Source: an uncultured Bacilli bacterium | GTDB lineage: Bacteria; Bacillota_I; Bacilli_A; RF39; UBA660 | Length of the DNA stretch: 64,000 bases | Direction of reading: 5' to 3' | Assembly: GCA_934162445.1 (NCBI GenBank) | Contig: CAKPIT010000002.1 | Span: 11,101 to 75,100 of the forward strand | In this document: in pieces, positions 25,894 to 47,510 of the stretch | Layout: each line of letters starts with the position of its first letter | Numbering within the stretch: the stretch's first letter is position 1 | Translations under genes and position numbers: made by a program | Notes under the pieces: generated by a model | The model's database searches: none | What the model was told of the DNA's origin: nothing | Seen by the model: only the letters and a program-made list of their open reading frames with translations

Positions 25894-26778
25894 TTATTTA
25901 TCTAGATGCATTATTTCTAAAATTCTTGTTAAATCACTAGCACTGGTAAAGTTTATTTCAAGATGATTTTTAGTAATTTTTACTTTTGTTCCTAGTTTTT
26001 CACATAAATCACTTTCTAAATATGAAAATTCATTTGATTTATGAGTTTTAGGTTTGATTTCTTTTTTACGATGGAAATCTTCTTTAGATGTAGTTATTTC
26101 TTCTAACTTACGAACACTTAAATTTTCATTAATTATTTTTTCGGCTAAGTCTAGAGCCTGATCTTTGTTTTCTAATTTACTTAGGACTCTAGCATGACCC
26201 ATTGATAGTTCGCCTTTAATAATTTCATCTTTAATTTCAGCCGGTAAATTTAAAAGGCCAAGCATATTGGTAATATGGCTACGAGATTTTCCTACTTTAG
26301 TTGCTAATTCTTCTTGAGTTAGATTTAGTTTAGTTTTTAACATGTTATAGGCTTCAGCTTCTTCTAAAGGACTTAAATTTTCCCGTTGTAAATTTTCAAG
26401 AAGAGCTATTTCCATCATTTCTTCATCAGTTAAATCTTTAATAATAGCAGGAATTTTTGTTAAACCAGCAATTTTACTAGCTTTAACACGACGTTCTCCA
26501 GCTATTATTTCATAACCTTTTATGCTTTTTTTGGCAATAATTGGTTGAAATACACCATGTTCTTTAATGGATGCTGCTAATTCATTCAAACTATCTTCAT
26601 CAAATGTTTTTCGTGGTTGATATGGGTTACTTCTTAACTCATCTAAAGAAATTTCAGTAATTTGATTTTTAGGGGTAGTATCAATTATTTTTTGTTCTAC
26701 TTCACTCATACTAATTTGTTCGTTATTAAATAATTCTTCTAAGCCTCTTCCTAGGGCTCTTCTTTTAGTGTTCTCCAT
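25894..26778 (-). CDS. spo0J: Chromosome partitioning protein ParB/Spo0J (parS-binding type)
   Basis: RGLEELF, ISLDELRSNPYQPR and GERR boxes. HTH reads GKSRSHITNMLGLLNL...LSMGHARVL (Spo0J-type). ATG at 26778 follows an AAGGAAGTG RBS. Confidence 0.93.
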   Translation of the reverse strand: MENTKRRALGRGLEELFNNEQISMSEVEQKIIDTTPKNQITEISLDELRSNPYQPRKTFDEDSLNELAASIKEHGVFQPIIAKKSIKGYEIIAGERRVKASKIAGLTKIPAIIKDLTDEEMMEIALLENLQRENLSPLEEAEAYNMLKTKLNLTQEELATKVGKSRSHITNMLGLLNLPAEIKDEIIKGELSMGHARVLSKLENKDQALDLAEKIINENLSVRKLEEITTSKEDFHRKKEIKPKTHKSNEFSYLESDLCEKLGTKVKITKNHLEINFTSASDLTRILEIMHLDK

Positions 26779-27556
26779 TTCGATCAATCACTTCCTTTGC
26801 TAAATTTAAATAGGCTTCAGATCCTTTACTTTTAGGATCATAAACTATTATTGGCTCGCCATGGGATGGCGCTTCAGTTAGTCTTATTAAACGAGGAATA
26901 ATGGTATTGTAAACTTTTTCTTTGAAAAACTTACGGATATCATCTACTACTTCAAAACCTAGATTAGTTCTTGAATCTAACATTGTTAAAAGAACGCCTT
27001 CAATATCTAAATTGGGATTTAATTGTTTTTGGGCTAGTCGAACAGTATTTAGTAATTGCATAATTCCTTCTAGAGCAAAAAATTCACATTGAACAGGGAT
27101 AATAACTGAATCACTTGCTGTTAGGGCATTAGTCGTTATTAATCCTAGTGAGGGAGGACAATCAATTATTATAAAATCAAAATTATCATCTTGTAATTCT
27201 TGAAGATGGGTCTTTAATTGAGCTCCTTTGGCAAACCCCGGTTCACTTTGACTTTTTTCTAATAATTCAATGTCTAGACCTGCTAAATTAATGGTGGCAG
27301 GAAGAACATATAGTTTCTTATATTTTGTTTTTAACATTGCATCTTTGGTGTTACATTTGTTGGTTAAAACATCATAAATACTTAAATCAATATCTCCTTT
27401 ATTAATACCAACACCGGTTGTAGTATTACCTTGCGGATCCAAGTCTATTAATAACACTTTTTTACCTAAATATGCTAATGAGGCTGATAAATTTATACTA
27501 GTGGTTGTCTTACCTACTCCACCTTTTTGATTTACTAATGAAATTACTTTTGTCAT
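26765..27556 (-). CDS. soj: ParA/Soj partitioning ATPase
   Basis: NQKGGVGKTTT deviant Walker A. Confidence 0.96.
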   Translation of the reverse strand: MTKVISLVNQKGGVGKTTTSINLSASLAYLGKKVLLIDLDPQGNTTTGVGINKGDIDLSIYDVLTNKCNTKDAMLKTKYKKLYVLPATINLAGLDIELLEKSQSEPGFAKGAQLKTHLQELQDDNFDFIIIDCPPSLGLITTNALTASDSVIIPVQCEFFALEGIMQLLNTVRLAQKQLNPNLDIEGVLLTMLDSRTNLGFEVVDDIRKFFKEKVYNTIIPRLIRLTEAPSHGEPIIVYDPKSKGSEAYLNLAKEVIDRNGEH

Positions 27557-35199: not shown

Positions 35200-35353
35200 T
35201 GTGGAAAAAAGGAATTAACTTGTTGATTAAAAAATTGTGGAAAATGTGGAAAACTCAAAAATATGTTGATATATTTATATTTTGATTGTGGAGAAATTTG
35301 TCGAAAAATTGTGGATAAATAAAAAGTTGATTTTTGCTATTTCTTTTTCCACA
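35200..35353. promoter_or_regulatory. oriC left part: cluster of at least 6 DnaA boxes upstream of dnaA
   Basis: TGTGGAAAA at 35200, 35236 and 35245 (the last two in tandem). TGTGGAGAA at 35287. Perfect TGTGGATAA at 35310. TTTTCCACA at 35345. Confidence 0.88.
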
Positions 35354-35400
35354 AATTTAGAGTATTATAATGGTAATTTAGAAATTCAGGTGGGAGAGTG

Positions 35401-36789
35401 ATGGAAATGAATGTGGAAATTTTATGGCAAAATGTCTTAAAAGAAATCAATGATGAACTTTCCTCTCTTGCTTTTGATACTTGGTTTGATCAAGTGAGGC
35501 TTATTGAACTTAAAGATGGAGTGGCTATAATTGAAGTGCCTATGTCTATTCATAAGAAACACTTATCTGATAATTATGCAGAGCTTATTAAAGAATCCTT
35601 AAATAAGGTTACAGGAACTTATTTTGAATTAAAATTTTATTTACCTGATGAAGTTATAAGAGAAAAAGAGGAGAATAAAGAGAAAGAAAAAGAAAAAAAT
35701 ATTGATGTTAGTGCTAATACTGCTAGAAATTATAAAGAAAAATCAAATTTGAATGCAAAATATAATTTTGAAAATTTTATTGTAGGAAATAGTAATAAGT
35801 TTGCACAAGCAGCAGCACTTTCAGTGGCAGAAAATCCCGGAAAAATGTACAATCCTTTATTTATATACGGTAATAGTGGGTTGGGGAAGACACATTTGAT
35901 GCATGCTATTGGTAATTATATTGTGGAAAATTCTTCTAAGAGAGTTCTTTATGTTACCAGTGATCAATTTAGAGATGATTTTGTAGGTATTAATAAAAAA
36001 GATAATAATGGAACTAATTTTAGTTATATTGATTTTTTCAAGAATAAATATCGAAATATTGATGTATTAATTATTGATGATATTCAGTTTTTAGGAGGGG
36101 CAACGCAAACGCAACAGGAGTTTTTCCACACTTTTACTAATCTTTATAATGACTCTAAACAAATTATTATATCTTCTGATCGATCTCCTAATGATTTAAA
36201 ACTATTAGAGGAAAGATTAAGAACTAGATTCTGTTGGGGATTGACAGTTAATATTTATCCACCAGATTTTGAATTAAGGAAAGAAATTTTAAGAAAGAAA
36301 ATTATAGCTGGTAATTTTGAAACGGATATTTCAGAAGATATTATTGAATATATTGCGTCTAATATGGGAAGTGATGTTAGACAGCTTGAAGGTTCCATAA
36401 CTAGATTGGTAGCTTATTCTACAATAATGGGGGGAGCAAAAATCGATATTAATTTAGCAATTGAAGCATTAAAAGACTTTATTAGTAAAGGTTTATGTGA
36501 AAAGAACGATATTACAAGGATTCAGAAGATTGTCTCCGAGTATTTTCAAATTTCAGTTGAAGATATTAGATCTAAGAAAAGAAGTAGTAATATAGCGTTT
36601 CCAAGGCAAATTGCTATGTATTTATGCCGAAAATTAACAAGTGAATCATTTCCTAAGATAGGAACAGAGTTTGGAGGCAAGGATCATTCAACAGTTATGC
36701 ACTCAGTTGAAAAAATAGAAACAGAAATTAGAAATAATAAGGATTTAGCCGCTATTATTAAGAAACTTGAAAATGATTTAAAACCTTAA
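35401..36789 (+). CDS. dnaA: Chromosomal replication initiator DnaA
   Basis: GNSGLGKTHL Walker A; C-terminal DHSTVMH DNA-binding motif. The start could be 35401 or 35407. Confidence 0.97.
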   Translation: MEMNVEILWQNVLKEINDELSSLAFDTWFDQVRLIELKDGVAIIEVPMSIHKKHLSDNYAELIKESLNKVTGTYFELKFYLPDEVIREKEENKEKEKEKNIDVSANTARNYKEKSNLNAKYNFENFIVGNSNKFAQAAALSVAENPGKMYNPLFIYGNSGLGKTHLMHAIGNYIVENSSKRVLYVTSDQFRDDFVGINKKDNNGTNFSYIDFFKNKYRNIDVLIIDDIQFLGGATQTQQEFFHTFTNLYNDSKQIIISSDRSPNDLKLLEERLRTRFCWGLTVNIYPPDFELRKEILRKKIIAGNFETDISEDIIEYIASNMGSDVRQLEGSITRLVAYSTIMGGAKIDINLAIEALKDFISKGLCEKNDITRIQKIVSEYFQISVEDIRSKKRSSNIAFPRQIAMYLCRKLTSESFPKIGTEFGGKDHSTVMHSVEKIETEIRNNKDLAAIIKKLENDLKP

Positions 36790-36818
36790 ATTGTTGAAAA
36801 GTAGAAGTTATAAACACT

Positions 36819-36929
36819 TTTTCCACAGTTATTGTTGATAAATTTATGTTATAATATAAGCAAATAACTTTATTTTCCACAATTTCCACTGTGTAAATAT
36901 AAATATTATAAAGAAAGAAGGAATAAATT
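36819..36929. promoter_or_regulatory. oriC right part: DnaA boxes plus an AT-rich candidate unwinding region between dnaA and dnaN
   Basis: TTTTCCACA at 36819 and 36873, and a weaker ATTTCCACT at 36882. About 40 bp of almost pure A/T follow, up to the dnaN RBS. Confidence 0.75.
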
Positions 36930-38057: not shown

Positions 38058-38195
38058 GACAAATATCAAGAAAAAAGGTAAAAAAATTACTTTTTTTCTT
38101 TTTTTGTGATAAAAAACAACAATTTTCGACAATATAATATAGTAGACTGGTAGCCAAGCAATTTATTATTGCTTAAGGAAGGGGAGTTTCGAAAA

Positions 38196-38657
38196 ATGAA
38201 TGAATATGAGATTAATGATGAGACACTTGCGATTATGCCTGATAATGTATGGAATTCGATTGTAGTAGAGGACCAAGCTTCTTATGAAATTAGCAAAAAA
38301 CCATTAGATATTGTAGATTATAGTTGTAAATACTTTGGTAGTTCATATGATGGCAGAAAGTCAGGAGCTAAAACCATTCTAAATAGTGGTTATAAGTTAC
38401 CTATTTTGGTAGAGGGAACTAGAAATATTGTGTTTTTTCCTACAATTTCGCCGCTTGATGCTGATTGTTGTTGGATATCTTTAAAAAATATAAAAAGTTA
38501 TTCAAAAATTAATGATTATCAGACTTTGGTAGAATTTAAAAACAACAGAACTTTGGTAGTTAATATATCACTAAATTCCTTTAATAATCAGGTTATGAGA
38601 GCAAGTAGACTTGAATCAACAATTCGAAATAGACAAACAAAAAAAGAAACGATATAA
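38196..38657 (+). CDS. comK: ComK-family competence transcription factor
   Basis: YEINDETLAIMP..., PLDIVDYSCKYFGSSYDGRKSGA, IVFFPTISP and NSFNNQVMRASRL align with B. subtilis ComK as I recall it. GGGGAG RBS before the ATG at 38196. Confidence 0.8.
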   Translation: MNEYEINDETLAIMPDNVWNSIVVEDQASYEISKKPLDIVDYSCKYFGSSYDGRKSGAKTILNSGYKLPILVEGTRNIVFFPTISPLDADCCWISLKNIKSYSKINDYQTLVEFKNNRTLVVNISLNSFNNQVMRASRLESTIRNRQTKKETI

Positions 38658-41821: not shown

Positions 41822-44266
41822 ATGGATAGATTAGAACAAAATAATATAGTTAAAGAAGTTAAAGATTCGTTTTTGGAATATTCAATGAGTGTTATTGTGG
41901 CAAGGGCTTTACCGGATCTTAGAGATGGTTTAAAACCTGTTCATAGACGGATTTTATATTCAATGTATGAATCTGGTTATACTCCTGATAAACCTCATAA
42001 GAAAAGTGCTAAAACAGTTGGAGAAGTTATGGGTAATTATCATCCACATGGTGATTCTAGTATTTATGAGGCGATGGTAAGAATGGCTCAAGATTTCTCT
42101 TATCGATATATGTTAATAGATGGTCATGGAAATTTTGGTAATATAGAAGGATATGGTGCTGCAGCAATGCGGTATACAGAGGCTCGTTTATCTAAGATTT
42201 CTTTGGAACTTTTGAAAAACATTAATAAAAATACAGTAAATTTTGTTCCTAATTTTGATGAAACTACTAAGGAACCTGAAGTTTTACCATCAAGATTTCC
42301 GAATATTTTGGTAAATGGAACAACAGGAATAGCTGTTGGTATGGCTACTAATATTCCACCACATAATTTACGAGAGGTTATTGATGGTTGTGTAGCTTAT
42401 ATAGATAATCCTGAAATTGATGTTGATGGATTGATGCAGTATATAAAAGGTCCTGATTTTCCAACGGGAGCATCTATTTTAGGTAATAGTGGAATTAGGA
42501 AAGCTTATGAAACAGGGCGTGGAACTATTACGATAAGGAGTAAAGCACAAATTGAGGAAGTTAATGGTAGACAGCATATTATTATTGATGAGGTTCCTTA
42601 TGGTGTTAATACTTTGGAGTTAAAAAATAAAGTTGCTGAACTTGTTCATAATAAAACTATTGAGGGAATAGCTGATTATCATTCTGATTTGAAAAATGGA
42701 ATTAAAATAACTATTACTTTAAAGAAGGATGCTAATGCTCAAGTTGTTTTAAATAAGTTATATAAACATACTCAATTTCAAACAACTTATGGAATCATTT
42801 TCTTAATGCTTGATCAAGGAGTTCCTAAGACTTTAGGACTTAAAGATATTATTTCTAAATATATTGATTATCAAAAGGAAATAATTATTAGAAGAACGAA
42901 GTTTGATTTGGATAATGCTTTAAAAAGAGTACACATCTTAGAAGGCCTTAAAATAGCCCTAGATCACATAGACGCTGTTATTAAGCTAATTAGAGGGTCT
43001 AAGTCTGATGATGAAGCTAGAAAGGGCTTAATGGGGCAATTTGGGCTATCTGAGATTCAAGCTAATGCTATTTTGGAAATGAAGTTAAGAAGATTAACAG
43101 GATTAGAACGTGAAAAGATTGAAAATGAGTTAGCTGATTTATTAAAACTTATTGAAGAATTGGAATCTATTTTAAATAGTAATGAAAAGGTATTAAATGT
43201 TATTAAAACTGAATTATTGGAAATAAAGGATAAATATGGTGATGATAGACGGACAAATATTGATATGACGGCTATTGAGTATATTGAAGATGAATCTTTA
43301 ATTCCAGTTGAAGATATTATTGTAACATTGACTAATAATGGTTATGTTAAGAGAATGCGGGCTGATACTTATAAAGCTCAAAATAGAGGTGGCGTTGGTA
43401 TTAAAGGTATGGCTACTAATGAAGAGGATTTTGTTAAACATTTGATTTCTATGAAGACTCACGATTATATATTATTCTTCTCAAATAAAGGACGCGTATA
43501 TAGATTAAAGGGTTACGAAATACCAGAATTTAGTAGACAATCTAAAGGTTTACCAATAGTTAATTTATTATCGTTAGAACAAGATGAAAACATTAGTTCG
43601 ATAGTATGTTTAGATCCTTCTGTGGAAAACTATAAATATTTGTTGTTTGTAACACGAAATGGTTTGGTTAAACGTACAGAAATCAACGAATTTGATAGTA
43701 TTAGAAAGAGTGGAAAAATTGCTATTATTTTAAAAGAAAACGATGAATTAATTGTTGTGGATAAGACCACTGGTGAAAACGAGATAGTAATTGGCGCTAG
43801 TAATGGACGAATGGTTCGATTTGTGGAAAACGAAATTAGAGCAATGGGACGTGGTACTTCTGGTGTTAAAGGTATTGAGTTAGATGGTAGTATAGTTGTT
43901 GGTGCTAATGTTATTAAATCTGAAACTCAAGAGATTATGATTGTTACTGATAATGGTTATGGTAAAAAGAGTTCTATTGAAGAATATAGATTAACACATC
44001 GTGGTAGTAAAGGAGTCAAGGCTCTTAATTTAACAGAAAAGAATGGAAATATGATTTCTTTAAATGTTGTGGATAAAGGTTCTGATGAAGAACACGACAT
44101 AATGATTATTACAGACAGTGGAATAATTATGAGAATGCCAATGACTCAAGTTTCTACGTTAAAAAGAGCAACACAAGGAGTAAGGTTGATAAACTTGAGA
44201 GATAATCAAAAAGTTTCTACTGTTACAATTGTGGAAAAAGAAAATTCAGATGATACAGAAGAATGA
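41822..44266 (+). CDS. gyrA: DNA gyrase subunit A
   Basis: AAMRYTE active-site Tyr region; GyrA-box-type beta-pinwheel CTD; 814 aa. Confidence 0.98.
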
Positions 44267-44287
44267 TTAAAAATCATTCTTTTTTTA
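44260..44287 (+). terminator. Intrinsic terminator after gyrA
   Basis: agaatgatt-aaaa-atcattct followed by a T-run. Confidence 0.75.
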
Positions 44288-44293
44288 TAAAAT

Positions 44294-44309
44294 TATTTCC
44301 CGGGAAATA
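44294..44309. promoter_or_regulatory. NBS-1 (Noc-binding-site palindrome)
   Basis: TATTTCCCGGGAAATA; palindromy extends to 28 bp (taaaattatttcccgggaaataatttta). Confidence 0.8.
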
Positions 44310-44379
44310 ATTTTAATTCATAATTTATATATAAAATTTAATAGTTGTTAAATTTCTAATAGTTTATATGTTTAAATAA

Positions 44380-44395
44380 TGTTTCACGTGAAACA
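44380..44395. promoter_or_regulatory. parS-1
   Basis: TGTTTCACGTGAAACA, a perfect 16-bp palindrome. Confidence 0.85.
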
Positions 44396-44525
44396 ATGAT
44401 ATATAATAAATTATAATTACTCTTTCTAAAAAAGCGATTGCCGTTTAATTTAGAAAAATTTGAGATGAAAATTATTATGACTTTATGTACAGAAACACAA
44501 TTTATTCTTAAAAAATCAAAAAAAT

Positions 44526-44541
44526 TATTTCCCGGGAAATA
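44526..44541. promoter_or_regulatory. NBS-2
   Basis: TATTTCCCGGGAAATA. Confidence 0.8.
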
Positions 44542-44583
44542 ATCTTGAATTATAAGTTGTTAATATTTTCCATTTTTGAATAA

Positions 44584-44599
44584 TGTTTCACGTGAAACA
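44584..44599. promoter_or_regulatory. parS-2
   Basis: TGTTTCACGTGAAACA; palindromy extends to 22 bp. Confidence 0.85.
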
Positions 44600-44771
44600 T
44601 TAATAATATGTAATGAAACATCACTTATTTATGGTTAGTAAATATGTATATCTACTTATATGTTTTCATAAAGTTTTTTTTTAGATTGTAAAATTTTGTA
44701 ATAAAATGTATGTAAAAAATATAATGATTTAAAAAAATGGTATCGCTTTATTGATAAAATAAGCGAAAAAT

Positions 44772-44787
44772 TATTTCCCGGGAAATA
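44772..44787. promoter_or_regulatory. NBS-3
   Basis: TATTTCCCGGGAAATA; palindromy extends to 28 bp. Confidence 0.8.
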
Positions 44788-44849
44788 ATTTTTTAATATA
44801 TATATGACTTATAACTATAAATCTGTTGATATATTCTATTTTTTAATAA

Positions 44850-44865
44850 TGTTTCACGTGAAACA
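44850..44865. promoter_or_regulatory. parS-3
   Basis: TGTTTCACGTGAAACA; palindromy extends to 30 bp (ttaataatgtttcacgtgaaacattattaa). Confidence 0.85.
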
Positions 44866-44969
44866 TTATTAACGATTAATGCGACGTATATTATGATATA
44901 TAGATAATTAGTGGTTAAAATTATGATTAAATTGTGTGAATTTTGATTCTTTATTATATTAGTTAAAAT

Positions 44970-44985
44970 TATTTCCCGGGAAATA
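44970..44985. promoter_or_regulatory. NBS-4
   Basis: TATTTCCCGGGAAATA; palindromy extends to 28 bp. Confidence 0.8.
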
Positions 44986-45042
44986 ATTTTAAATTAATAA
45001 ATGATTTCTTTAATTGTTTCTTATATAGGTATTGTGAGCAAG

Positions 45043-45058
45043 TATTCCCTGTGAAACA
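45043..45058. promoter_or_regulatory. Hybrid/degenerate site: NBS-like left half + perfect parS right half
   Basis: TATTCCCT|GTGAAACA, in the slot where a parS is expected after NBS-4. Confidence 0.5.
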
Positions 45059-45139
45059 TATTATACTGGTTATTAAATATCTTTAAAATTAGCAAGAATA
45101 CTTTGTGTTTTATAGTTTGTTTAAAAATATATACTTTAA

Positions 45140-45155
45140 TGTTTCACGTGAAACA
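45140..45155. promoter_or_regulatory. parS-4
   Basis: TGTTTCACGTGAAACA; palindromy extends to 26 bp. Confidence 0.85.
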
Positions 45156-45165
45156 TTAAAAAAAT

Positions 45166-45181
45166 TATTTCCCGGGAAATA
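45166..45181. promoter_or_regulatory. NBS-5
   Basis: TATTTCCCGGGAAATA, 10 bp after parS-4 and 4 bp before the -35 of the SRP RNA promoter. Confidence 0.8.
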
Positions 45182-45185
45182 ATTC

Positions 45186-45213
45186 TTGCATTATAATTTT
45201 AATATGGTATAAT
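45186..45213 (+). promoter_or_regulatory. SigA-type promoter of the SRP RNA gene
   Basis: TTGCAT, 16-nt spacer, TGgTATAAT (extended -10). Confidence 0.8.
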
Positions 45214-45219
45214 TTATTT

Positions 45220-45298
45220 GTGCAATAGATTTGTTTGGAATCAGGTCAGGATGGAAACATAGCAGCCTTAACAAATTTAATCTATGTGCACTTTTTTT
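45220..45298 (+). ncRNA. ffs: Small (4.5S-type) signal recognition particle RNA
   Basis: GTGCAATAGATTTGTT pairs with AACAAATTTAATCTATGTGCAC. The apex is TCAGGTCAGG-AUG-GAAA-CAU-AGCAGCC, i.e. the helix-8 AGG/AGCA loops and a GNRA tetraloop. A U-run follows. Confidence 0.85.
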
Positions 45299-45329: not shown

Positions 45330-45773
45330 ATGAATAATATATATATGCAAAAAGCTGTGGAAGAAGCTAAGAAAGCTTATAAACATAATGAAGTACCAGT
45401 TGGTGCAGTTATTGTTAAAAATAATAAAATTATTGCTAAATCTTATAATAAAAAAGAAAAGAAAAAGTGTGCTATTTACCATGCTGAAATTGATGCAATA
45501 AAAAAAGCTGCAAAAGGCCTTGGAAATTGGCGATTAAATGGTTGTGAAATGTATGTTACTTTAGAACCTTGTCCTATGTGTGCTAGTGCTATTAAACAAA
45601 GTAGAATAGAGAAAGTGTTTTTTTTGTTGGAAAATAAGAACAATGAAGTACATGATTTAACAATGAATATTTTATCTGTTACAGATGCTAATGCACCTGT
45701 GGAAATCGTAAAATGTGCTAATCAAGAAGAAATAAATGAATTTATTACTTTTTTTGAAAAAAAACGTAATTGA
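45330..45773 (+). CDS. tadA: tRNA-specific adenosine deaminase TadA
   Basis: EVPVGAVIV, HAEIDAI and PCPMCASA zinc motifs. The start was moved from 45231 because the upstream part overlaps the SRP RNA. Confidence 0.93.
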   Translation: MNNIYMQKAVEEAKKAYKHNEVPVGAVIVKNNKIIAKSYNKKEKKKCAIYHAEIDAIKKAAKGLGNWRLNGCEMYVTLEPCPMCASAIKQSRIEKVFFLLENKNNEVHDLTMNILSVTDANAPVEIVKCANQEEINEFITFFEKKRN

Positions 45774-45839: not shown

Positions 45840-47510
45840 ATGTATCAAGCTTTATATCGTAAGTATAGACCACTTAATTTTGATGCGGTTGTAGGACAAT
45901 CGGTGATTATTAATGCTTTAAAAAATGCTATTTTATATAATTGTATTAGTCATGCTTATTTATTTTCAGGACCACGTGGTACAGGAAAAACAACGGTAGC
46001 AAAGATATTTGCAAGATCAATTAATTGTTTAGAACCGGTTGATGGTTTAGCTTGTGGAAAATGTAATAATTGTTTATATTCTTTTTCAACTGAGTGTATG
46101 GATATTATTGAAATTGATGCTGCTTCTAATAATGGTGTTGACGAAATAAGAGAATTGCGTAGTAAGGTTGGTATTTTGCCTAGTGAATTAAAGTATAAGG
46201 TATATATCATAGATGAAGTTCATATGCTTTCTATTGGAGCTTTTAATGCTTTGCTTAAAACTATTGAAGAACCTCCGGAGCATGTTATTTTTATTCTTGC
46301 TACAACTGATCCTGAAAAGATTCCAACTACAATTATTTCAAGATGTCAGTGGTATAATTTTAAGAAAATTGATAATGTTAGCATTGTTTCTAGATTACAA
46401 GAAATAGTAGATAGTGAAAAAATTAATGTAGAGTCTGGAGTCCTTGAAAAAATAGCATCTAGTGCAGATGGCGGTTTAAGGGATGCAATAGGACTTTTGG
46501 ATAAGCTTTATGCTTATTCTCATGATGAGATATTACTTAATGACTTTTACGAGGTTAATGGGCAAATAAATGATGAAGAATTAAGTGCTTTAAAGGCGAT
46601 TATTTCTGATAATAATGTTAAATTGTTGATGGAAAAAATAGAATCTTATTATCAAAATGGTAAAAATTTAATTCAAGTAATGCGGCAGTTAATGATAAGT
46701 ATAAAGAATGATTTGTTTTCTTATTATATTAGTGATGATAATATTCAATTTGATCCTTTAGATATGATTGATTTATTAAATATTTTGAACAATAGTTTGA
46801 TGGAATTAAAAAAATCTGATGATGTTAGACTTTCTGTGGAAATCTTGTTTTTACATTATTTTGGTTTGAAACATGATAATATTACTAAAGAAAAAAATGA
46901 TGAGAGTGTTTTTTCGAAACCAAAAGTTGTGGAAAAGCCTGTTTCTTTTAAACCAATTATAAAAAATGATGAAGTTATTGATAATAGTGGCGAAGCTAAG
47001 AGATTTGAGGAAAATTTTGATTTTAATAATTTTATTAATGTAATGTTAGTTAGATCAAAAAATATAATGTTGAAGGCATCAAAAGATGAATTAAATAAGG
47101 CTTTGAATAATAATAACATTTTTAAAGGTTCAACTTTTGATAAGACTACAGGATATTTAGCTTGTGAAATACTTGATGGTCATATTAGAGCGGCTAGTGT
47201 TGATGGAATAATAATAAGTTTTGATTATGAATCAATGGTAGAAAAAATGGCTAGTCATTTTGATATTTTGAATAATTATTATCAAAAAATGATAGGAAGT
47301 TCACAGAAAATTGCTATTATTACAAATGAGCGGTGGAGTGAACTTAAGGGAGAATATATTGAATTGAAAAGAGAGGGTAAATCTTTTGAATATCAAGATG
47401 AGCCAGTCTTGAATAAAACTGTTAATAATGATAAAATTGAGGAAACAATATCATCTAATTATATTGATGAAGTTAAAGAGATGTTTGGTGATATTGTGGA
47501 AATAAAATAA
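45840..47510 (+). CDS. dnaX: DNA polymerase III subunit tau/gamma
   Basis: GPRGTGKTT, zinc module CGKCNNC, SRCQ. Confidence 0.96.
   Translation: MYQALYRKYRPLNFDAVVGQSVIINALKNAILYNCISHAYLFSGPRGTGKTTVAKIFARSINCLEPVDGLACGKCNNCLYSFSTECMDIIEIDAASNNGVDEIRELRSKVGILPSELKYKVYIIDEVHMLSIGAFNALLKTIEEPPEHVIFILATTDPEKIPTTIISRCQWYNFKKIDNVSIVSRLQEIVDSEKINVESGVLEKIASSADGGLRDAIGLLDKLYAYSHDEILLNDFYEVNGQINDEELSALKAIISDNNVKLLMEKIESYYQNGKNLIQVMRQLMISIKNDLFSYYISDDNIQFDPLDMIDLLNILNNSLMELKKSDDVRLSVEILFLHYFGLKHDNITKEKNDESVFSKPKVVEKPVSFKPIIKNDEVIDNSGEAKRFEENFDFNNFINVMLVRSKNIMLKASKDELNKALNNNNIFKGSTFDKTTGYLACEILDGHIRAASVDGIIISFDYESMVEKMASHFDILNNYYQKMIGSSQKIAIITNERWSELKGEYIELKREGKSFEYQDEPVLNKTVNNDKIEETISSNYIDEVKEMFGDIVEIK

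Follow-up and report, generated by a model that had tools for sequence, protein, structure and literature searches.

Two model DNA clamps that are switched by cytidine triphosphate (CTP), ParB and Noc, are thought to use separate sets of sites for separate jobs. In that view, ParB acts in chromosome segregation and SMC loading, and Noc acts in nucleoid occlusion. Clusters of the ParB (Spo0J) site, parS, are described from the chromosomes of Bacillus subtilis, Caulobacter, Corynebacterium and Myxococcus. The B. subtilis chromosome carries about 70 Noc-binding sites (NBS), which are spread over two-thirds of its length. The centromere of the F plasmid, sopC, consists of 12 repeats of 43 bp, each with a palindrome for the ParB-family protein SopB. 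In sporulating B. subtilis the origin is anchored by the RacA-ram system, in which a dedicated DNA-binding protein uses origin-proximal sites. The NBS of Staphylococcus aureus are found at 41 loci across ±700 kb, and those of B. subtilis are dispersed over the chromosome (PMC5540599). Here we analyze a 64,000-nucleotide stretch (the window) of contig CAKPIT010000002.1 from an uncultured Bacilli bacterium, in which the two kinds of site share one short patch. The spacer of about 0.9 kb between gyrA and ffs, the gene for the signal recognition particle (SRP) RNA, contains five perfect copies of TATTTCCCGGGAAATA (NBS) and four perfect copies of TGTTTCACGTGAAACA (parS). This array is probably a dual clamp-loading, origin-specific composite centromere, used together with an origin-specific derivative of Noc.

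The nine perfect sites follow the order N-P-N-P-N-P-N-P-N (N, NBS; P, parS), which is 1 of 126 possible orders. Beyond these copies neither 16-mer has a match at up to two mismatches in the 64-kb window (chance expectation 0.04 for TATTTCCCGGGAAATA and 0.01 for TGTTTCACGTGAAACA). Palindromy reaches 24–30 bp at the NBS and 22–30 bp at the parS. The spacers between sites are 60–80% alike, every perfect-site core is identical, and Tandem Repeats Finder detects no unit repeat in the window array beyond a trivial 13/17-bp A/T repeat. The longest open reading frame (ORF) in the spacer is 34 amino acids long. The origin was placed by the GC-skew switch and by two clusters of DnaA boxes, one upstream of dnaA (35200–35353) and one downstream (36819–36881); the array is thus 7.4–8.9 kb from oriC. 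A preliminary description of this locus had listed the same nine sites at the same starts, their strict interleaving, the extended palindromes, diverged spacers around identical cores, the lack of any ORF of 60 amino acids or more and a distance of about 8 kb to oriC, and all of this is borne out. Two details had to be revised. Neighboring sites lie 26–188 bp apart from start to start, not 26–86 bp. The sequence TATTCCCTGTGAAACA at 45043, described as a hybrid that fills a parS slot, is a decayed site with four mismatches to the NBS consensus and four to the parS consensus. Strict alternation is broken if it is counted as a site.

The identity of the palindromes as parS and NBS, which had been proposed earlier, was confirmed by comparison with crystal structures. 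ParB was crystallized with a 20-bp parS, GA-TGTTTCACGTGAAACA-TC, and B. subtilis Noc with a 22-bp NBS, GGA-TATTTCCCGGGAAATA-TCC (Jalal et al. 2020, PMC7383237). Both 16-mers of the window are exactly the cores of these DNAs. The four perfect parS copies match the 16-bp Firmicute consensus TGTTNCACGTGAAACA, and the five perfect NBS copies contain the 14-bp palindrome ATTTCCCGGGAAAT.

Two ParB paralogs are encoded in the window, in a gene block with the classic order rsmG-noc-soj-spo0J. They lie 15.3–18.4 kb from the array; the preliminary description was right to place both in the window, and its distance of 16–19 kb was slightly off. The 297-residue protein has B. subtilis Spo0J as its best match in the Protein Data Bank (PDB; 216 bits vs 159 for Noc). 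The 454-residue protein best matches Noc structures (212 bits vs 165 for B. subtilis Spo0J). Jalal et al. 2020 (PMC7383237) assign Q173 of Noc to base A1 and R201 to base C6; their engineered variants of Caulobacter ParB bound DNA with just one lysine, at either 179 or 184. The specificity residues of the window Spo0J are R-M-N-G, with the R at 173 and the G at 201 that are typical of ParB. Those of the Noc-like protein are Q-K-S-R, so that three of four match the Q-K-K-R of Noc; at position 184 the aligned Noc-like homologs have S, A or T. Both proteins have GERR and ENLQR motifs, as ParB-family CTPases do. The N-terminal ParA-interaction motif LGRGL is present in Spo0J only, which also has a ParB_C domain. 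The assignment of parS to Spo0J and of NBS to the Noc-like paralog appears well supported by these residues and match scores, and DNA binding and CTP-dependent loading are predicted for both proteins. The helix-turn-helix (HTH) segment of Spo0J reads ...TNMLGLLNL..., where ParB and Noc proteins usually have ...ANxLRLLxL.... The usual arginine of LRLL is replaced by glycine in the Spo0J of the window and in that of L166, a more distant clade member.

The array is kept in related genomes at the same locus. We searched one genome per GTDB species for the exact pattern ATTTCCCGGGAAAT-N(43–73)-GTTTCACGTGAAAC and obtained at least 119 stretches with it, drawn from about 113 genomes, each a species. 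Flanking genes were recognized with the window proteins (tblastn) in 117 of the 119 listed stretches, and the other two are too short for any recognizable gene. The cluster lies between gyrA and dnaX in all 117, that is, in more than 100 species. The conserved layout is gyrA → [array] → (ffs, tadA) → dnaX, and the position of the array relative to ffs and dnaX differs among species. The GyrA proteins of the carriers are 52–89% identical to that of the window. A locus has a median of 7 sites and a maximum of 22. Across the loci it is a 24-bp NBS (AAAtTATTTCCCGGGAAATAATTT) and an 18-bp parS (ATGTTTCACGTGAAACAT) that hold the information content, with about 0.1 bit in the spacers. The parS variants across the loci are the known forms TGTTCCACGTGAAACA and TGTTTCACGTGGAACA. 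Shared 9-mers across 120 arrays gave no universal third spacer motif; the most widely shared ones belong to the SRP RNA, to a subclade-specific spacer (ATAGAGAAG) and to DnaA boxes.

Nearly all carriers are uncultured gut Bacilli of low GC content, sampled from rabbits, goats, sheep, chickens, mice and humans; among them are Candidatus Onthousia and 'Clostridium sp. CAG:1193'. The clade is placed by NCBI in 'Bacilli incertae sedis', and many carrier records are labeled Erysipelotrichaceae, Mollicutes or Tenericutes, or bear obviously mis-binned names. All genomes are metagenome-assembled genomes (MAGs) or metagenome contigs, in which the copy numbers of tandem arrays may be mis-assembled and several arrays stand at contig ends. 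In several MAGs the array is split over two contig ends (L011/L035/L094, L057/L061, L116/L118, L032/L115 and L067/L117). Where the array is a tandem repeat, short-read assemblies are interrupted right at the proposed centromere near the origin. This is one practical aspect of the array for MAG assembly; another is that it could serve as a compact two-color ParB/Noc labeling cassette.

The order of sites across the loci is far from random. Adjacent pairs are NP in 279 cases, PN in 281, PP in 183 and NN in 37. Within-locus shuffles give 118 ± 6.5 NN pairs (minimum 95), and NN is thus depleted about threefold. Two NBS are nearly always parted by at least one parS, in (NP)n or (NPP)n patterns depending on the lineage. 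The median center-to-center spacing is 68 bp from N to P and 60 bp from P to N. In 29 loci a composite unit of parS and NBS is truly repeated in tandem, with periods of 105–373 bp and 80–100% identity, and with one weak case at 87 bp and 77% identity. Examples are L023 (125 bp × 10.7, 91% identity), L057 (127 bp × 8.8) and L084 (105 bp × 6.1). The array grew by tandem duplication of a [parS+NBS] unit, or of an [NBS+parS+parS] unit in some lineages. Duplication of a unit with one site of each kind makes strict alternation automatic and is its simplest explanation. It is a simpler origin than selection for forced co-loading of the two proteins, which the preliminary description had named among the likely effects of alternating sites. 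In the window the cores are perfect although the spacers have decayed, which indicates that selection acts on the cores.

These repeats would also fit two independent systems that share a location simply because each requires sites near the origin. A fortuitous parS+NBS unit would have been amplified by unequal crossing-over, ParB would serve segregation and SMC loading, the Noc-like protein would serve local nucleoid occlusion, and the interleaving would have no function. This explanation, which differs from the composite centromere in functional coupling only, is rather unlikely. It draws on the composite-unit repeats in the 29 relatives, on the dependence of unit type on lineage, (NP)n or (NPP)n, and on the existence of NBS satellites without parS. 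However, the two kinds of site are still intermixed in the 86 loci that show no repeat similarity: 26 NN pairs are found there vs 63 ± 5 expected, and none of 3000 shuffles is as low. The arrangement is kept down to 52% GyrA identity, and parS almost never occurs in our sample without a neighboring NBS.

The array of the window is close to a chromosomal parS cluster in some respects and distinct in others. It shares with such clusters the 16-bp palindrome, the origin-proximal position, several closely spaced sites and a cognate ParB with a ParA partner in a soj-spo0J operon. It differs in that its parS are interleaved one-for-one or two-for-one with the sites of a second paralog, that the arrays of the clade are often true tandem repeats, and that, wherever checked, the parS are confined to a single gyrA-dnaX spacer of about 1 kb. 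The likeness to sopC lies in head-to-tail repeats that each carry a ParB-family palindrome and in copy number that varies among relatives. Such repeats are seen in the 29 relatives, with no unit repeat in the window. Unlike sopC, the array is chromosomal, has two specificities per unit and shows no plasmid similarity that we could find.

Sites outside the array are few and lie mostly near the origin. The window together with 10 kb to its left and 8.4 kb to its right (L122 and L121; about 82 kb) has no further site at up to three mismatches, except one NBS-like sequence with two mismatches. The 684 kb of locus flanks outside the gyrA-dnaX spacer contain 2 parS and 45 NBS, and 33 of these 45 NBS are one conserved, perfect 24-bp site inside dnaX. 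A scan of metagenomes for the exact clade-typical 22-mer NBS returned at least 120 stretches (L124–L243). About 108 of the 120 listed carry homologs of the origin-region genes of the window. The recurrent NBS positions in the listed stretches are the array, the inside of dnaX, recF|gyrB, mnmE|jag, mnmG|mnmE, the inside of an 'mts' gene and rsmI|pth. Of the 196 parS in the 120 listed stretches, 189 are within or next to the gyrA-dnaX spacer, or else on short contigs with the array; the remaining 7 are in dnaX, dnaX|recR or mnmE. All five longer stretches that do not come from the origin region flank polA/fpg (L129, L161, L178, L210 and L211). In ODHZ01000312.1 the polA-side NBS are 20–25 kb from dnaX. 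Solitary NBS satellites without parS thus recur around the origin and beside polA, with none in the species of the window. Contigs of 100 kb or more number 26 and total 5.09 Mb; the listed matches of the NBS 22-mer on them fall within 27 stretches (255 kb) only, with none listed in the other 4.8 Mb or so. By the exact 22-mer, and among the matches listed, the NBS of the clade are confined to the origin neighborhood. No match was found for the composite NBS-parS pattern in viral contigs or for the window array in plasmids, and a mobile-element origin was rejected on these grounds.

The dnaX-internal NBS (AAATTATTTCCCGGGAAATAATTT) encodes K-I-I-S-R-E-I-I-S and lies at about +1020 to +1200 nt into the gene. 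It occurs in 33 genome loci (for example L007, L010, L012, L015, L016, L021, L026, L031, L037, L040 and L043) and at about 25 sites in metagenome stretches, and it is not in the dnaX of the window. The codons that flank it are not conserved, which points to a constraint at the DNA level within the gene.

The distribution bears on the suspicion that the palindromes are not ParB-family sites at all. Perfect intergenic palindromes with 6-bp cores of restriction type (CCCGGG, CACGTG), placed after a terminator, might be repeats like repetitive extragenic palindromes or miniature inverted-repeat transposable elements, targets of restriction-modification systems, or hairpin terminators. We regard this as essentially refuted. 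The 16-mers are identical to the crystallized parS and NBS, and the cognate paralogs are encoded nearby. The sites occur at one syntenic locus in more than 100 species with no other copy in about 82 kb, and a perfect 24-bp NBS is maintained within the coding sequence of dnaX. No terminator-like sites were found inside the window array, and no Rfam families in the array region except the SRP RNA at its edge; nor is there an ORF of note. A dispersed repeat family without origin bias, which the preliminary description had named as a finding that would overturn its interpretation, is not what we see: the bias toward the origin is strong.

Transcriptional control was also considered. Like KorB and some ParBs, the Noc-like protein, ParB or both would mainly repress or insulate ffs-tadA-dnaX and other replication genes. 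NBS 5 lies upstream of the putative ffs promoter, with its end 4 nt from the –35 hexamer, and several replication genes have NBS satellites beside or inside them (between recF and gyrB, within dnaX and on the flanks of polA). However, the 9 to 22 sites of an array far exceed the need of an operator, and the number of promoter-like matches within the array does not exceed chance (19 vs 13 ± 3.8 expected). The placement of the array relative to ffs and dnaX varies by species, and the dnaX-internal NBS is about 1 kb inside the gene. Control of transcription as the main role is very improbable. The putative ffs promoter, read from the sequence, consists of TTGCAT (45186–45191), a 16-nt spacer and TGgTATAAT, within 45166–45213. 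Protein bound at NBS 5 might alter the transcription of ffs; alternatively, the promoter might set a limit to the spreading of clamps.

The architecture of the Noc-like protein is unusual. Membrane binding and function of B. subtilis Noc depend on an amphipathic helix at its N-terminus (K2, S4, F5, R7, F8 and F9), which is extremely conserved (PMC4331003). In the maximal ORF of the window protein just 9 residues (MKMIDQKDN) precede the ParB fold. The helix is absent from this protein and from 40 aligned homologs, which share the short start; these were taken from 120 listed homolog clusters, mostly of 450–506 residues. The 454-residue protein has ParB_N and HTH_ParB domains and stands at the noc gene position. 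It scores 286 bits on the NCBIfam model TIGR04285 (nucleoid_noc), below the cut-off of 315 bits. When residues 218–401 are deleted in silico, the score rises to 296 bits and the alignment covers the whole model (positions 1–255 of 255). The protein is thus a Noc homolog with an insertion of about 190 residues between the DNA-binding and C-terminal domains. A canonical Noc masked by the insert was rejected, because even the excised version does not reach the cut-off and the protein genuinely has no N-terminal helix.

The AlphaFold2 model (mean predicted local distance difference test score 63) has a ParB fold at residues 10–200, disorder at 205–405, short helices at or near some conserved motifs, and a C-terminal domain of a helix and two strands at 410–449, which is Noc-like. 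The disordered insert (approximately 205–405) contains the invariant short motifs GIDYSTPPKFIDY, FKFF and NNPFAxNPIF. A long insert of predicted disorder with invariant motifs is present in the subclade of the window. The motif FKFF is faintly like the SFSRFF core of the Noc helix, which is a lead and not a result. The more distant L166 has a Noc-like protein of 300 residues with neither the helix nor the long insert.

By this architecture the 454-residue paralog is not a canonical Noc. The 'Noc-type ParB' of the preliminary description holds for its best structural match and for three of its four specificity residues, and fails for the membrane helix. A predicted NBS-binding paralog without that helix cannot be assumed to have 'Noc' function. 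Compared with the Noc-NBS systems of B. subtilis and S. aureus, the likeness extends to the NBS core ATTTCCCGGGAAAT, the gene position, the Noc-type Q/K/R residues, the ParB-type CTP motifs and the C-terminal domain. The clade differs in its origin-clustered NBS, the missing helix, a residue 184 that is not lysine and, in the subclade of the window, the disordered insert of about 200 residues. The Noc-like paralog is most likely an origin-specific partner of ParB (an anchor, adaptor or organizer) and not a genome-wide nucleoid-occlusion factor. RacA-ram offers a possible functional analogy for such an origin-restricted protein in a spore-former, although its protein fold and site sequence are unrelated.

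We propose the following mechanism for the composite centromere. The gyrA-ffs spacer would be a centromere-like loading platform for two paralogous, presumably CTP-dependent clamps of the ParB family. Spo0J/ParB would nucleate on the four parS, and the Noc-derived paralog on the five NBS. Both clamps would spread from one 1-kb patch about 8 kb from oriC, so that their nucleoprotein domains would cover the same origin-proximal DNA. ParB would keep its usual roles with Soj and SMC, and the disordered arm of the Noc-like protein would link the origin complex to another partner, for example the membrane, a cell pole, the divisome or the machinery of replication. Selection kept the 18–24-bp cores perfect while the spacers decayed. 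Such an array would be a natural system for studying whether two sliding clamps on one DNA share it, get in each other's way or assist one another. It would also show the re-specialization of a nucleoid-occlusion factor to the origin, and the growth of a centromere by satellite-like tandem duplication. A stronger version is possible but doubtful. In it, a Noc paralog would have been repurposed across a large clade of uncultured, spore-forming gut Bacilli, with its helix lost, a motif-bearing disordered arm gained and its sites collapsed onto the origin, and would have joined ParB on a two-specificity tandem-repeat centromere. The interleaving itself would be selected for obligate co-assembly of the two CTP clamps, as a primitive two-component 'kinetochore'.

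The proteins might instead stand in an opposite relation. Dimers of one paralog bound at their sites might block the sliding clamps of the other, and so confine ParB, the Noc-like protein or both. The outcome would be a compact focus of high density, or the shielding of neighboring genes and oriC from spreading. The median center-to-center spacing of 60–68 bp (down to 26 bp in the window) and the near-constant flanking of NBS by parS are consistent with this, and DNA-bound proteins reportedly block ParB sliding in vitro. However, the outermost sites leave clamps a way out, ParB reportedly bypasses roadblocks by recruitment in trans, and sequence gives the same picture for blocking and for co-loading. 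We consider antagonism or insulation quite improbable.

Several points weigh against the composite centromere as proposed. The binding and CTP use of both proteins are predicted from sequence, and the hosts are uncultured. Position 184 of the Noc-like protein is Ser, Ala or Thr, instead of the near-invariant Lys of Noc. Noc-like proteins of the L166 type have no long insert, and the insert is therefore not required for an array. The loci were chosen for having one NBS-parS pair, which slightly inflates the counts of unlike neighbors. Unit duplication may have left the alternation as a mere frozen trace, with the two proteins not coupled in function. The restriction of NBS to the origin region is based on the exact 22-mer and on the matches listed, and weaker NBS may be dispersed elsewhere. 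In sum, the preliminary interpretation is upheld in the identity of the sites, the two paralogs and the origin bias, and is strengthened by the conservation; selection for forced co-loading and a canonical 'Noc' function are not supported. Its other suggestions, mutual road-blocking or a mixed nucleoprotein body, are plausible.

Each component of the system is already known: parS, NBS, ParB, a Noc homolog and the tandem-repeat centromeres of plasmids. The interleaved array of two specificities appears undescribed, and so do its retention at a single locus in more than 100 species, the contraction of the NBS set to the origin and the altered Noc architecture that goes with it. A full-text literature search, which included the NBS sequence, matched standard Noc and ParB papers only; it gave no description of a mixed parS/NBS array, in line with the preliminary description, and, its coverage being incomplete, this is absence of evidence only. 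The coordinates of the sites and of the surrounding features are collected in Table 1.

Table 1. Positions of the array sites and neighboring features in the window.
Feature	Position	Strand	Remark
NBS 1 (TATTTCCCGGGAAATA)	44294..44309	.	palindrome extends 44288–44315
parS 1 (TGTTTCACGTGAAACA)	44380..44395	.	
NBS 2	44526..44541	.	
parS 2	44584..44599	.	
NBS 3	44772..44787	.	
parS 3	44850..44865	.	30-bp palindrome 44843–44872
NBS 4	44970..44985	.	30-bp palindrome 44963–44992
Decayed site TATTCCCTGTGAAACA	45043..45058	.	perfect parS right half only (GTGAAAC at 45051)
parS 4	45140..45155	.	
NBS 5	45166..45181	.	end 4 nt upstream of –35 hexamer of putative ffs promoter
spo0J/parB, 297 aa	25894..26787	-	predicted parS binder
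soj/parA ATPase	26765..27556	-	
Noc-position ParB paralog, 454 aa	27643..29007	-	predicted NBS binder
oriC	35200..36881	.	DnaA-box clusters flanking dnaA, at GC-skew switch
gyrA	41822..44266	+	left array boundary in all relatives
Terminator-like A/T-rich hairpin and T-run after gyrA	~44261–44287		read from sequence
SRP RNA (ffs)	45216..45297	+	right array boundary in window
tadA	45330–45773		downstream of ffs
dnaX	45840–47510		downstream of tadA

By its gene content the organism of the window is a walled spore-former. The window and the adjoining L121 and L122 encode the sporulation proteins SpoIIR, YabP, YabQ and SpoVG and a YabG-type peptidase, and also the cell-wall proteins MreB/Mbl and a class A penicillin-binding protein. 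Many related MAGs are recorded as Mollicutes, Tenericutes or Mycoplasma, despite the wall and sporulation genes of the window.

Between dnaN and recF there is an ORF of the ComK family (38169–38657, plus strand; Pfam PF06338 on the called 153-residue product). It occupies the position of yaaA in B. subtilis and is kept in many relatives at 25–68% identity.

Just upstream of the array, at the 3' end of gyrA, there are five DnaA-box matches (43621–44238; two perfect, all on the minus strand). In the relatives the density of perfect TTATCCACA is 0.18–0.36 per kb in the last kilobase of gyrA and the first kilobase after it. Elsewhere it is about 0–0.05 per kb in most bins and about 0.25 in two bins near gyrB/recF. 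The boxes at the end of gyrA could be a cluster that adjoins the centromere, or could reflect a coding constraint on the C-terminus of GyrA.

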